Shown here piece by piece: positions 13,390 through 57,846 of a DNA stretch of 64,000 nt. The translations under genes were made by a program, and so were the position numbers. Position 1 is the stretch's first letter; the number at the start of each line of letters is the position of its first letter. Under the pieces are notes generated by a model. The model was not told where the DNA came from. It saw only the letters and a program-made list of their open reading frames with translations, and ran no database searches. The DNA is taken from the NCBI RefSeq assembly GCF_056746865.1, contig NZ_CM163382.1, one strand, 5' to 3'.

Positions 13390-14225
<836 letters not shown>

Positions 14226-27672: not shown

Positions 27673-27699
27673 TTATCGGCAAGGAGGGGGGAAACTTTA
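27673..27699 (-). promoter_or_regulatory. Sigma-28 (FliA) class 3 promoter of the tar-tap-cheRBYZ operon
   Basis: Minus strand reads TAAAGTTT-N11-GCCGATAA, a perfect match to the sigma-28 consensus, about 30 nt upstream of the tar start. Confidence 0.85.
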
Positions 27700-27726
27700 T
27701 TGCTGATGCCACCCGCCGCGAAATTG

Positions 27727-27757
27727 AAATAAAAAACCCGATGCGCAGATCATCGGG
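27727..27757 (-). terminator. Rho-independent terminator after cheW (end of the motAB-cheAW operon)
   Basis: Minus strand: cccgatg-atctgcg-catcggg followed by TTTTTTATTTC. Confidence 0.75.
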
Positions 27758-27785
27758 TTCATTTCAATTGAGGAAATCGGGAGAA

Positions 27786-31201: not shown

Positions 31202-31205
<4 letters not shown>

Positions 31206-32089
31206 GCTTCCTCGGTTGTCGTCTGTTGTTGCGGATTTTTCACCGCACGCACATGCTCTTCCAGTTCAATAAACGACGGACGTTCGCTGGAATAGAGCGT
31301 TTTGCGACCAAACTCAACGGCGATAGGCGGTGCGTAACCGTTCAGATTAGAAAGCAGAGTGACTTTGACGCACTGCATCATTTTGCTGGTTTCGGCGCTT
31401 TTCTGACGTAAAACAGTCGCTAATGGGGAAATAAATCCGTAAGCCAATAAAATGCCGAGGAAAGTCCCCACCATCGCATGTGCGATAAGCGCACCCAGCT
31501 CGGCGGCAGGACGATCGGCTGAACCTAACGCGTGAACGACCCCCATTACAGCCGCAACAATACCAAACGCCGGAAGTGAGTCCCCGACCAGCGCCAGACT
31601 GTTCGCCGGGACTTCTGCCTCGCTTTCGTGCGTCTCAATCTCTTCATCCATCAGGGCTTCGATTTCGAAGGTGTTCATGTGACCGCTGATAATCAGGCGC
31701 AGATAATCGACGATAAAATCAAGCATGACGCTATCCGCGAGGATGCGTGGGTAGCTGGCGAAGATCTCGCTCTCACGGGGATTTTCAATATCACGTTCCA
31801 GCGAAAACATCCCCATCTGCCGCGATTTCGCCATCAACCGATAAAGCAGAGCCAGCAGATCCATATACATTGCTTTGGTGTATTTGGAGCGACGAAACAG
31901 CAACGGCAGCGCCTTCAGCGTGCCTTTAATCGCTTTGCCATTATTGCCGACGATAAACGACCCAATCCCTGCACCGGCAATAATCACCAGTTCAGCGGGT
32001 TGATAGAGTGCTCCAAGGCTTCCACCGGTCATCAAATAACCGCCGAAAACTGTACCGAGAACAACCAGGTAACCTAATAAGATAAGCAC
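31202..32089 (-). CDS. motA: Flagellar motor stator protein MotA (295 aa), GTG start
   Basis: ORF 31202..32089; 4-nt overlap with the motB start; plus-strand cac at 32087-32089. Confidence 0.97.
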
Positions 32090-32157
32090 GACATCATCCT
32101 TCCACTGTTGACCATGACAGGATGTTCAGTCGTCAGGCGTTAACGCGCGATTGGGGC

Positions 32158-32190
32158 AAAAAAAGCAGCGGTACGTCGTTACCGCTGCTG
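32158..32190 (-). terminator. Rho-independent terminator immediately after flhC (flhDC operon end; also expected MotR 3' end)
   Basis: Minus strand: gcagcggta-acgacg-taccgctgc followed by U7. Confidence 0.7.
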
Positions 32191-32252
32191 GAATGTTGCG
32201 CCTCACCGTATCAGTTAAACAGCCTGTACTCTCTGTTCATCCAGCAGTTGTG
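32158..32252 (-). ncRNA. motR: Candidate MotR sRNA (sigma-28-dependent, from the motA 5' UTR)
   Basis: Sigma-28 promoter at 32259-32285 inside the flhC 3' end and intrinsic terminator at 32158-32190 before motA delimit a roughly 95-nt transcript, as described for MotR. Ends not verified. Confidence 0.4.
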
Positions 32253-32793
32253 GGATAATATCGGCAGGATTCTGGGAAAGTTTACGTCTTTTTACTGCCC
32301 GGGATGGCGGTTGACATAAGCTGCAGGCAAAGCTGCCAACAGGCTGGTGAGCGTGGGTAATAAAATTGCCGCCGCAGCAGTTGCAGCTGGAAAGTTGCAG
32401 TAATCCACTTTCAACAAACCGCACCAATGTCCAGGCACGGGTTAATGCCAGCAGTGGTCCTTCTTCTGCTTGTGGGCACTGTTCAAGGTATAAACGGTAG
32501 GCTTTGATCACCGCATCGACGCCATTACACAAACCGGTTTTCAGTAAAAACTGCCATGCATTACAGAACATCGAAGCATGAACGTTTTGTTCCCAGGTCA
32601 TAAACCAGTCGGTTGAGAATGGCAGCATGCCTTTCGGCGGTGGGCTTCCGCGCAGTTCTTTATAAAGTTTTATCAGGCGTCCGCGACTTAACTGTGTTTC
32701 GCTTTCCAGCATCTGCAAACGAGCGCCCAGGGTGATCAATTCCATTGCCAGCTGAATATCCCGCGCTTCCTGAACAATGCTTTTTTCACTCAT
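32215..32793 (-). CDS. flhC: Flagellar master regulator subunit FlhC (192 aa)
   Basis: ORF 32215..32793; zinc-binding cysteine cluster (CNCCGG...CSLC). Confidence 0.97.
32259..32285 (-). promoter_or_regulatory. Sigma-28 promoter for motAB-cheAW (and MotR), located within the flhC 3' coding region
   Basis: Minus strand TAAACTTT-N11-GCCGATAT; 7/8 and 7/8 match to the sigma-28 -35/-10 consensus with 11-nt spacer. Confidence 0.7.
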
Positions 32794-32795
32794 GA

Positions 32796-33146
32796 TCAGG
32801 CCCTTTTCTTGCGCAGCGCTTCTTCAGGCTGATTAACATCATTCAGCAAGCGTGTTGAGAGCATGATGCCGGTATGAATTTGCTGGAGATCGTCAACGCG
32901 GGAATCTTGCGTCAACTGAGTAATCGTCTGGTGGCTGTCAAAACGGAAGTGACAAACCAGTTGATTGGTTTCTGCCAGCTTAACCATTTGCGGAAGAGTC
33001 AGTGCCGCTAACGTTGTCGCCATTTCTTCATTTATGCCGAGACGAAACATAGCGGACGCTTTGTCCTGAACAATCAAACGCTGTGCAAGTAGTAAATATG
33101 ACAAGTTGATGTCATAAATGTGTTTCAGCAACTCGGAGGTATGCAT
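32796..33146 (-). CDS. flhD: Flagellar master regulator subunit FlhD (116 aa; 119 aa if the upstream ATG is used)
   Basis: ORF 32796..33155 ([22 protein letters not shown]...); start placed at MHTSELL as in the structurally characterised protein. Confidence 0.93.
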
Positions 33147-33925
33147 TATTCCCACCCAGAATAACCAACTTTATTTTTATGCGGTTTCACCGCACCCCGT
33201 GATGTCGCCGGGAAGCCCCGGTAAAAAATAATTAGCATTAGAATAGTTGCGATAAGCTGCAATAAGCAGAACCACCTTTTTGGTTTAATATGTCCTTACA
33301 AATAGAAATGGGTCTTTACACTTATCTAAGATTTTTCCTAAATCGACGCAACTGTACTCGTCACTACACGCACATACAACGGAGGGGGGCTGCGATTTTC
33401 AATAATGTGTGATGCAGATCACACAAAACACTCAATTACTTAACATAAATGTATAAGTCATACTTTTGTTTTGGGTGTATTTCAATCTGTTAAAAAGTTT
33501 TTCGCTACGCTAGCAAGCAAAAATGAAACAGGAATAATCGAAATGGGATGTTGCGCACAGTCAAAATAACTCACCGTAAATAATCATCTGCTATAAATAA
33601 TCACTTTCATGCAATACCAGATAAGCTATTTTTAAACAGACACTTACCGCACAACAAACTAATTAAATACAAAGAAAGGCAACAATCAACTTAATGTTAA
33701 TGAAATGTTTTGCATATATTAACCACTTGTTTAATGCGGAGAATCAGTACACTATTTTCTTATAATTACATTTGAAATTATATGATCACCGGGAGTGATT
33801 GATTAATTGTCTTTACTAATAATCAGACTAATATTTACCTGTTTGACCGAGTTGGGATTGCGTCGTTTCTCCATTAGGAGTAAAGCTTTAATGTCACCTG
33901 AAGTTCACAGAATAAGGAACAGGTT
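33147..33925. promoter_or_regulatory. flhDC class 1 promoter / long 5' UTR and divergent uspC promoter region (about 780 bp, AT-rich, no ORF of 60 aa or more)
   Basis: Long AT-rich non-coding region between divergent flhD and uspC; known hub for CRP, OmpR, RcsAB, LrhA, H-NS and several sRNAs. No IS terminal repeats visible. Confidence 0.7.
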
Positions 33926-56280: not shown

Positions 56281-57624
56281 TTAACCCTGCAGCAGAGACA
56301 GAACCTGCTGCGGTACCTGGTTAGCTTTAGACAGCACAGAGTTACCCGCCTGCTGGATGATCTGCGCTTTCGACATGTTGGACACTTCGGTCGCATAGTC
56401 GGCGTCCTGAATACGGGACTGCGCTTCAGACAGGTTGGTGGTGGTGTTATTCAGGTTGGTGACCGCAGAATCCAGACGGTTTTGTACGGCACCGAGGGAG
56501 GAGCGGAAAGTATCAACTTGCGAGATAGCTTTGTCTAAAAGTGCCAGCGGATCGTTGGTTGCAGTACCAGAAAATGTTGCTGTTGCCGCTGTTTTTACAG
56601 AACCATCAACATCGAGTTCATCGGTAAGTTGGATTTTTGTGTCTTCATTTGTTGCAGCGTCACCACCGTTTTCAATTGCATCCTTACCGTCTGCACCAGC
56701 AAGGTAATCTTTGCCTTGAATAGTAACATAGCCAACAGCCGCGCCAGCACTATTCGTCGTGACCTTGATAGGCTGACCTGTCTGTGTTGCTGTGGTAACA
56801 CCGTTCGCAGGATCAGTGAAAGTAACATTGGTGGTATTAAGCGTAACAACGCCACCAGCATTAACGGAAGCCGAATAGAAGTCATTACCAGATTGAACAA
56901 CATAGGTTCCTGTCGCTTTACCATCCGCGCTTTGTACGTTATGTAGGGACAAGCCTGATGTATCACTTATTCCCAATGTTTTAGCCATTGCGGCAGCAGC
57001 GGTATCGTTCGCACCAAATTTAACCGTAACCGGGGCATCGCCAGCATTAGCACCAGGAACTGTAGTTATCGCATCGCTAACTTTTAATGCGTTCCCTGAT
57101 ACCGAGAAACCTTTCAATCCCAGCGTTGAAGAATCAATTTTCTGCAAATCGATAGAGATGGTCTGCCCGTCATTCGCGCCAACCTGAATCTTCATCGAAC
57201 CGTCTTTCGCCAGCACGTTCACGCCGTTGAACTGGGTCTGACCGGAAACGCGGTCAATTTCGTCGAGACGGGATTTGATTTCGTCCTGAATGGAGTCCAG
57301 ATCCGAATCAGAGTTAGTCCCGGTAGAAGCCTGAACCGTCAGTTCACGAATACGCTGTAAGTTGTTGTTGATTTCGGACAGCGCGCCTTCAGTGGTCTGT
57401 GCAACAGAAATACCGTCGTTGGCGTTACGTGCAGCCTGAGTCAGGCCTTTAATGTTAGAAGTAAAACGGTTAGCAATCGCCTGACCTGCGGCGTCATCCT
57501 TCGCGCTGTTAATACGCAAGCCAGAAGACAGACGCTCGATAGAACTCGACAGCGCAGACTGGTTCTTGTTGATATTATTTTGAGTGATCAGCGAGAGGCT
57601 GTTGGTATTAATGACTTGTGCCAT
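56281..57624 (-). CDS. fliC: Flagellin FliC (447 aa); conserved N/C termini with a central variable (H-antigen) domain that is not K-12 H48
   Basis: ORF 56281..57624; MAQVINTNSLSLITQNNINKNQSALSSSIERLSSGLRINSAKDDAAGQAIANRF... and C-terminal ...QVPQQVLSLLQG; length 447 aa versus 498 aa for K-12. Confidence 0.97.
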   Translation of the reverse strand: MAQVINTNSLSLITQNNINKNQSALSSSIERLSSGLRINSAKDDAAGQAIANRFTSNIKGLTQAARNANDGISVAQTTEGALSEINNNLQRIRELTVQASTGTNSDSDLDSIQDEIKSRLDEIDRVSGQTQFNGVNVLAKDGSMKIQVGANDGQTISIDLQKIDSSTLGLKGFSVSGNALKVSDAITTVPGANAGDAPVTVKFGANDTAAAAMAKTLGISDTSGLSLHNVQSADGKATGTYVVQSGNDFYSASVNAGGVVTLNTTNVTFTDPANGVTTATQTGQPIKVTTNSAGAAVGYVTIQGKDYLAGADGKDAIENGGDAATNEDTKIQLTDELDVDGSVKTAATATFSGTATNDPLALLDKAISQVDTFRSSLGAVQNRLDSAVTNLNNTTTNLSEAQSRIQDADYATEVSNMSKAQIIQQAGNSVLSKANQVPQQVLSLLQG

Positions 57625-57700
57625 GATTCGTTATCCTATATTGCAAGTCGTTGATTACGTATTGGGTTTCCACCCGTCGGCTCAATCGCCGTCAACCCTG

Positions 57701-57727
57701 TTATCGTCTGTCGTAAAACAACCTTTA
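57701..57727 (-). promoter_or_regulatory. Sigma-28 class 3 promoter of fliC
   Basis: Minus strand TAAAGGTT-N11-GACGATAA, about 75 nt upstream of the fliC start. Confidence 0.85.
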
Positions 57728-57819
57728 GAATTTTTTTCACAAACAGCCATTTTTTGTTAGTCGCCGAAATACTCTTTTCTCTGCCCCTTATTCCCGCTAT
57801 TAAAAAAAACAATTAAACG

Positions 57820-57846
57820 TAAACTTTGCGCAATTCAGGCCGATAA
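57820..57846 (+). promoter_or_regulatory. Sigma-28 promoter of fliDST
   Basis: TAAACTTT-N11-GCCGATAA, 44 nt upstream of the fliD start. Confidence 0.85.

Follow-up and report, generated by a model that had tools for sequence, protein, structure and literature searches.

A sigma-28 promoter inside flhC and an intrinsic terminator ahead of motA at the presumed motR locus of Escherichia coli

In a 64,000-nt stretch of Escherichia coli DNA (RefSeq assembly GCF_056746865.1, contig NZ_CM163382.1; hereafter the window), a sigma-28 motif in the 3′ end of flhC faces a terminator that stands before motA. Does transcription from this motif stop at the terminator, yielding the small RNA (sRNA) MotR, or does it read through into motAB-cheAW? 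We conclude that the locus is almost certainly E. coli motR, with a sigma-28 promoter in the flhC end and a leaky terminator before motA. Both the promoter and the sRNA are already published, and a known element was correctly recognized here, not discovered. The region is that of E. coli flhDC and motAB-cheAW, with motB and cheA downstream of motA on the (-) strand. The features, the identity with K-12 and the conservation were computed here; FliA dependence, Hfq binding, read-through and function come from the literature. The features of the locus are:

32215–32793 (-), flhC, 192 aa; its final 23 codons carry the promoter and MotR nt 1–37 (annotated by RefSeq in identical DNA)
32258–32284 (-), sigma-28 (FliA) class-3 promoter TAAACTTT-N11-GCCGATAT in flhC codons 170–179 (motif match, position conservation, literature)
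32251 (-), presumed +1 (A), at which both MotR and the motAB-cheAW mRNA begin (mapped from the K-12 primer and template)
32158–32251 (-), MotR sRNA, 94 nt (sequence equal to published MotR apart from the U tail)
32204–32206 (-), MotR seed core, nt 46–48, GUG within GGUGAGG (primers SM467/SM468 and M1 gBlock)
32164–32189 (-), terminator hairpin, MotR nt 63–88, AGCAGCGGUA, 6-nt loop, UACCGCUGCU (folding, covariation)
32158–32164 (-), terminator T tract, 7 T, the first of which also pairs with A63 (alignment)
32090–32157 (-), rest of the motA 5′ UTR, including the Shine-Dalgarno sequence GGAAGGA (total 5′ UTR, 162 nt)
31202–32089 (-), motA, GTG start, 295 aa, heading the read-through product (annotated by RefSeq in identical DNA)

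The FliA promoter inside flhC

The original prediction had placed the motif on the minus strand at 32259–32285, within the last codons of flhC. The motif, its strand and its location (codons 170–179 of the 192) were recovered, but the predicted coordinates were 1 nt off. It departs from the consensus TAAAGTTT-N11-GCCGATAA by two mismatches (14/16 positions match, with a spacer of 11 nt), and the GCC GAT of its -10 element encodes FlhC Ala177-Asp178. A consensus scan of the 64-kb window at ≤2 mismatches found four matches, where 100 shuffles led one to expect 0.04; none of the shuffles gave four. Each match is upstream of one of tar, motA, fliC and fliD, which belong to class-3 flagellar operons in K-12. 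Four matches, all at class-3 operons, against 0.04 expected exclude chance. Besides the motif in flhC, the scan gave:

27673–27699 (-), sigma-28 match upstream of tar
57701–57727, sigma-28 match upstream of fliC
57820–57846, sigma-28 match upstream of fliD

The motA promoter within flhC was FliA-dependent in reporter fusions and ChIP-seq in K-12, was the most conserved FliA promoter and was argued to constrain FlhC Ala177-Asp178 (Fitzgerald et al., bioRxiv 10.1101/188474). Its DNA is identical to that of the promoter analyzed here.

The start of transcription was taken from K-12, for which the 5′-phosphorylated cloning primer SM001 and the T7 template both start at ACAACTGCTGG, which gives the +1 and the full 95-nt sequence of MotR (PMC10578931, supplementary file 3). 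By sequence, the +1 in the window would be at 32251(-), 6 nt downstream of the -10 element and 162 nt from the start of motA, the first gene of motAB-cheAW. One sigma-28 promoter serves both MotR and motAB-cheAW. A sigma-70 scan of 31500–33900 revealed no sigma-70-like promoter on the (-) strand between the terminator and motA, so that nothing pointed to a further motA promoter of the sigma-70 kind.

Several observations concern the flagellar genes elsewhere in the window. The tar-side motif, between cheW and tar, is a perfect copy of the sigma-28 consensus and is presumably the tar-tap-cheRBYZ promoter; a match to Rfam family C0465 on the opposite strand (27689–27766 (+), 111.6 bits) overlaps it. 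Divergent sigma-28 motifs within 56281–57846 lie upstream of a 447-aa (-) ORF and a 468-aa (+) ORF, which by position are fliC and fliD. The K-12 FliC is 498 aa in length, so that a FliC of 447 aa would belong to another H type. The expected place of the FliX sRNA is the fliC 3′ UTR. The flhD-uspC intergenic region (33156–33925, 770 bp) holds no ORF >40 aa, and hence no IS element upstream of flhD. Motile K-12 laboratory stocks carry IS1 or IS5 at this place, and with none there, the window strain may have lower expression of flhDC and, by way of FliA, of MotR.

MotR, its terminator and read-through into motAB-cheAW

From 32251 to 32158 the transcript would measure 94 nt, in line with the roughly 95 nt that had been predicted, and its assignment to MotR was borne out. 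The window sequence is identical to the published 95-nt MotR through nt 88, and the tail is U7 vs. U8. Compared with MotR of E. coli K-12 (Melamed et al., eLife 2023, PMC10578931), the promoter, +1, seed and hairpin are the same and 94 of the 95 nucleotides are present and identical; the K-12 RNA ends in U8, whereas the predicted MotR of the window has one U fewer. In an alignment of the 221 bp from the promoter to the motA start, the T tract is the only difference between the window and K-12. The interval reported for MotR in MG1655, 1,977,300 to 1,977,208 (PMC8175672), denotes the same element. MotR nt 1–37 overlap flhC codons 181–192 and the stop codon.

The published evidence on the RNA comes mainly from K-12. 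A prominent MotR band of ∼95 nt was seen when the wild type was compared with a fliA deletion by Northern blotting, and MotR was FliA-dependent and enriched by Hfq co-immunoprecipitation (Melamed et al., PMC10578931). Its GGUGAGG seed pairs with the fliC and rpsJ mRNAs, and flagellum synthesis is promoted; MotR has RIL-seq targets, the loss-of-function mutant MotR-M1 has nt 46–48 changed from GUG to CAC, and a chromosomal motR-M1 mutant makes fewer flagella (PMC10578931). According to the same authors, MotR is also detected in RIL-seq data of EPEC and Salmonella. In later work, MotR was up about 4.5-fold in nudC and csdA mutants and down when the Hfq C-terminal domain was removed. In a Term-seq study (Adams et al., bioRxiv 10.1101/2020.07.18.207399), motA and flhC are unmentioned in the main text or the supplements examined.

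The seed in the window, GGUGAGG, is the K-12 allele by alignment. Some E. coli strains, AR_0055 and MS20677 (loci L003 and L004), carry A49U (32203), which gives GGUGUGG beside the M1 triplet, and C54A (32198). The GGUGUGG form is also found in E. albertii, Salmonella and Citrobacter, so the GGUGAGG of K-12 and the window looks derived.

No match at 32158–32251 was obtained when the whole window was scanned with Rfam 15 at gathering thresholds, that is, nothing in that library reached its threshold there, and no curated RNA family backs the MotR assignment. Elsewhere in the window, the MicL sRNA has a full-length match at 13391–13698 (-) (Rfam RF02654, 370 bits).

As a whole, MotR does not fold into an unusually stable structure (z = -1.59), whereas the terminator hairpin alone does (-17.3 kcal/mol, z = -6.47; 0/200 shuffles fold as well). 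The prediction of a good intrinsic terminator before motA (32158–32190) thus holds: the stem, from 32189 to 32164, has 10 bp, six of them GC, around a 6-nt loop, and the T run ends at 32158. RNAalifold recovered the hairpin from 65 distinct orthologues, with 98.1% of the cells paired. Three upper stem pairs show compensatory changes (22 cells with both sides changed; 0/500 shuffles reach the covariation score), and five lower stem pairs do not vary in the 65 orthologues. The hairpin starts 25 nt past the flhC stop codon (32215–32217) and ends 68 nt before the motA GTG (32089). It is the sole good terminator between flhC and motA, and from this we infer that it ends flhDC transcripts too, doubling as the terminator of that operon.

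Taken with the published work, these features suggest how the node would operate. Polymerase carrying sigma-28 (FliA) would start at 32251(-) from the promoter in flhC codons 170–179 and, about 90 nt downstream, would reach an intrinsic terminator of moderate strength, 25 nt after flhC ends. Complexes that stop at the hairpin and T tract would release the Hfq-binding sRNA MotR of ∼94 nt, and those that read through would cross the remaining 68 nt of leader and make the motAB-cheAW mRNA, with the same 5′ end and a 162-nt leader. The alternative of terminating or reading through, as originally proposed, has been published for K-12 DNA that is identical bar one T: longer bands seen with the MotR probe were ascribed to read-through of the MotR terminator into motAB-cheAW, and the split between the two products is documented (PMC10578931). 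Its authors speculate on a feedback loop in which MotR raises S10, and S10-NusB then promotes read-through of the motR terminator (PMC10578931). As with other 5′ UTR-derived sRNAs made by premature intrinsic termination, and as in classical terminator/anti-terminator leaders such as that of S10, a terminator in the UTR splits transcription between a short stable RNA and the full mRNA.

The terminator resembles those of SgrS and RyhB, in which a GC-rich hairpin of moderate strength precedes a long, unbroken run of T (Morita et al., 2017, PMC5558911). The 3′ end is of the Hfq type, with a 10-bp hairpin followed by exactly 7 U. Seven or more T were reported for functional Hfq-binding sRNAs (Morita et al., 2017, PMC5558911), which puts the T7 tract at the published minimum for such RNAs and at the lower limit of the range described for terminators of the SgrS/RyhB type.

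K-12 and most E. coli have 8 T at this place, where the window has 7. With queries of 91 and 92 nt, for which any single difference drops below the 99% identity band, exact matches among the complete E. coli genomes numbered 39 for T7 and 4,041 of 5,349 for T8. E. coli strain F11 (NZ_CP184143.1) matches the window at 100% identity along 20,001 bases. After it, the closest two genomes are HCM-25C-3 and 300490; both carry T7, which makes a real allele of a small E. coli clade plausible; the next tier of genomes is 1 nt longer. The other T7 genomes belong to assorted unrelated strains, among them single assemblies of RP437 and ATCC 8739, a pattern which suggests that T7 could be a homopolymer sequencing error or recurrent slippage. 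A sequencing artefact as the only reading was rejected, since the two next-closest genomes have T7. Judged from the sequence, T7 may bring a modest shift to read-through or a less Hfq-competent MotR.

Conservation in the Enterobacterales and constraint on the flhC 3′ codons

The MotR element was found at ≥80% query coverage in 5,368 of 5,426 complete E. coli genomes. Beyond the species, one scan of species-representative genomes with FlhC gave 80 loci, from Escherichia to Serratia, Pectobacterium and Brenneria. The sigma-28 promoter is fixed at 70 nt before the flhC end in all 80, with a score of 13–15 of 16, which reproduces the top conservation reported by Fitzgerald et al. (bioRxiv 10.1101/188474). 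The stem GCAGCGG...CCGCUGC, followed by 6–9 T, is present in almost every one of the ∼70 loci from Enterobacteriaceae and Erwiniaceae, and the terminator ends there about 83–88 nt from the predicted +1 (∼20 nt further in one Pantoea locus, L071). Across species, the T tract has 8 T in 44 loci, 9 in 19, 7 in five and 6 in three.

Three Serratia species (loci L075, L081 and L085) lack the GCAGCGG terminator but keep the promoter, and their leaders measure 184–258 nt. Pectobacterium and Brenneria (loci L077–L080, L082 and L083) also keep the promoter, and in the terminator's place they have a UCUAUCACUG...CAGUGAUAGA hairpin whose U run is poor.

Two individual genomes also stand out. In E. coli APEC O2-211 (NZ_CP006834.2; L005:1637–2360), an IS200C-family element of ∼0.7 kb, with its tnpA in the same orientation as motA, sits at the 3′ edge of the MotR T tract and splits MotR from motA, so that sigma-28 read-through would have to cross the IS. 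In Enterobacter cloacae DSM 26481 (L073:1201–1812), the promoter spacer is 10 nt, not 11, and flhC is frameshifted at the spacer, with a 203-aa product whose similarity ends at residue 173; this may be a single-base deletion that hits the promoter and the FlhC C-terminus together, or an assembly error.

The flhC sequence itself is constrained just downstream of the promoter. Codons 182–187 (CAA CTG CTG GAT GAA CAG), which correspond to MotR nt 4–21 and to 32231–32248 (-), each use a single codon in 71 distinct flhC sequences, with one exception at GAA. The majority-codon fraction is ∼1.0 at these codons vs. a background of 0.60 in the rest of flhC, and the 7-codon window from codon 181 is the most synonymously constrained of the whole gene, above the promoter. 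Fitzgerald et al. (bioRxiv 10.1101/188474) looked at amino-acid conservation around the promoter, whereas the strongest synonymous constraint found here lies just past it, in the transcribed MotR 5′ end.

These data (i) point to more than protein-level selection at codons 182–187, namely to selection acting on RNA or DNA; and (ii) suggest, from the lack of the GCAGCGG terminator in Serratia, Pectobacterium and Brenneria, that a MotR-like short RNA may be confined to the Enterobacteriaceae and Erwiniaceae.

Might the short RNA have no function of its own? The hairpin could be primarily the flhDC terminator, and the short sigma-28 transcript a functionless by-product of where the motA promoter is placed. 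The hairpin begins just 25 nt beyond flhC and is the sole good terminator before motA, which agrees with this, as does the promoter without a terminator in the Serratia species, which means that the short RNA is not universal. The published Hfq binding, RIL-seq targets and seed-dependent phenotypes (motR-M1, with fewer flagella) argue against it, as does a T tract of sRNA-type length, 7 or more, in most species, and we regard a functionless by-product as very improbable. The roles of flhDC terminator and MotR sRNA do not exclude each other. That motif and hairpin are chance matches with no transcriptional role has a negligible probability. All that favors it is that a consensus match does not in itself prove function, and against it stand the four matches, all at flagellar class-3 operons, where 0.04 were expected, the promoter position invariant in 80 species and the hairpin z of -6.5; the ChIP-seq, reporter-fusion and Northern data published for the K-12 DNA have refuted it already. 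The locus is thus best read as motR.

A candidate anti-terminator in the motA leader

As in an attenuator, the terminator of the motR locus lies in the leader upstream of motA, ending 68 nt before the start codon. Classical terminator/anti-terminator leaders, such as the S10 leader, have an alternative fold; for the MotR leader an alternative fold is predicted only, between the strands:

32240–32247 (-), candidate anti-terminator strand, MotR nt 5–12 (CUGCUGGA), within which nt 6–8 are those mutated in MotR*
32185–32192 (-), its complement, MotR nt 60–67 (UCCAGCAG), overlapping the first 5 nt of the terminator 5′ arm

The two strands could pair as soon as nt 60–67 are transcribed, before the 3′ arm is made, hold the terminator 5′ arm and so allow some read-through into motA. 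The 5′ partner would be the opening dozen nucleotides of the RNA, which coincide with flhC codons 182–185. Translating ribosomes would cover nt 1–37 on flhDC-initiated transcripts only, and by this masking of the MotR 5′ end class-1 transcripts could stop efficiently while sigma-28 transcripts leak. We hold such an anti-terminator, which would add to the main explanation, to be a tentative and rather unlikely reading.

When folding of the growing transcript was modeled, the helix of nt 5–12 with nt 60–67 was part of the most stable predicted structure at lengths of 66–84 nt (-19.9 kcal/mol for the 72-nt RNA), and the terminator fold won only at 88 nt or longer (-26.6 kcal/mol). With MotR* (nt 6–8 changed from UGC to GAG) the anti-terminator intermediate was absent (-9.5 kcal/mol at 72 nt). 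The MotR* mutant RNA is more abundant (PMC10578931); the authors give no reason for this abundance, which an anti-terminator would explain, although greater stability could be the cause instead. The nascent helix is predicted in 64 of 65 orthologues with a median pair probability of 0.98, and at full length the terminator fold is better than the helix by only about 2.6 kcal/mol (median of the 65). Both strands are invariant in 63 of the 65, and a change in Pluralibacter is G-U compatible. This very invariance leaves the covariation test uninformative: six of the eight pairs never vary, and no two-sided covariation was seen.

The 5′ strand falls in the most synonymously constrained stretch of flhC, codons 182–187, as would be expected of an anti-terminator helix. 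The MotR 5′ sequence is, however, equally invariant in Pectobacterium and Brenneria, which are without the CCAGCAG terminator, so that something else must constrain it too. In E. albertii a disruptive A-to-C change falls in the box of the candidate helix, and the CCA of this box is also base-paired within a small hairpin that covaries and lies directly upstream of the terminator. When the upstream 59 nt were shuffled 2,000 times with their composition kept, 7.9% of the shuffles gained as much energy, and for one sequence the complementarity is therefore not significant (p ∼ 0.08); for this reason the anti-terminator was not raised to the main explanation. A search of mainly open-access literature returned no described anti-terminator for the motA leader.

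The E. albertii strain concerned, NBRC 107761 (L006:1743–1835), has the box CCCGCAG, not CCAGCAG, and a T tract of 6 T; it is the sole orthologue that loses the predicted helix between the 5′ end and the terminator arm.

The promoter has long been on record, and the sRNA and read-through since 2023; the value of the finding is the correct annotation of motR in the window strain. The rarity of T7, the synonymous constraint on flhC and the anti-terminator candidate may be the sole points beyond published work. Constraint at the nucleotide level widens the published idea that the promoter constrains FlhC to the transcribed 5′ end of MotR. If true, the anti-terminator would explain the abundance of MotR*, the constraint on codons 182–187 and the invariance of the lower stem across ∼65 species, and one hairpin would stop class-1 transcripts firmly and let sigma-28 transcripts pass. 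T7, if functional, could change the ratio of MotR to motAB-cheAW, and hence motility, in a small E. coli clade.
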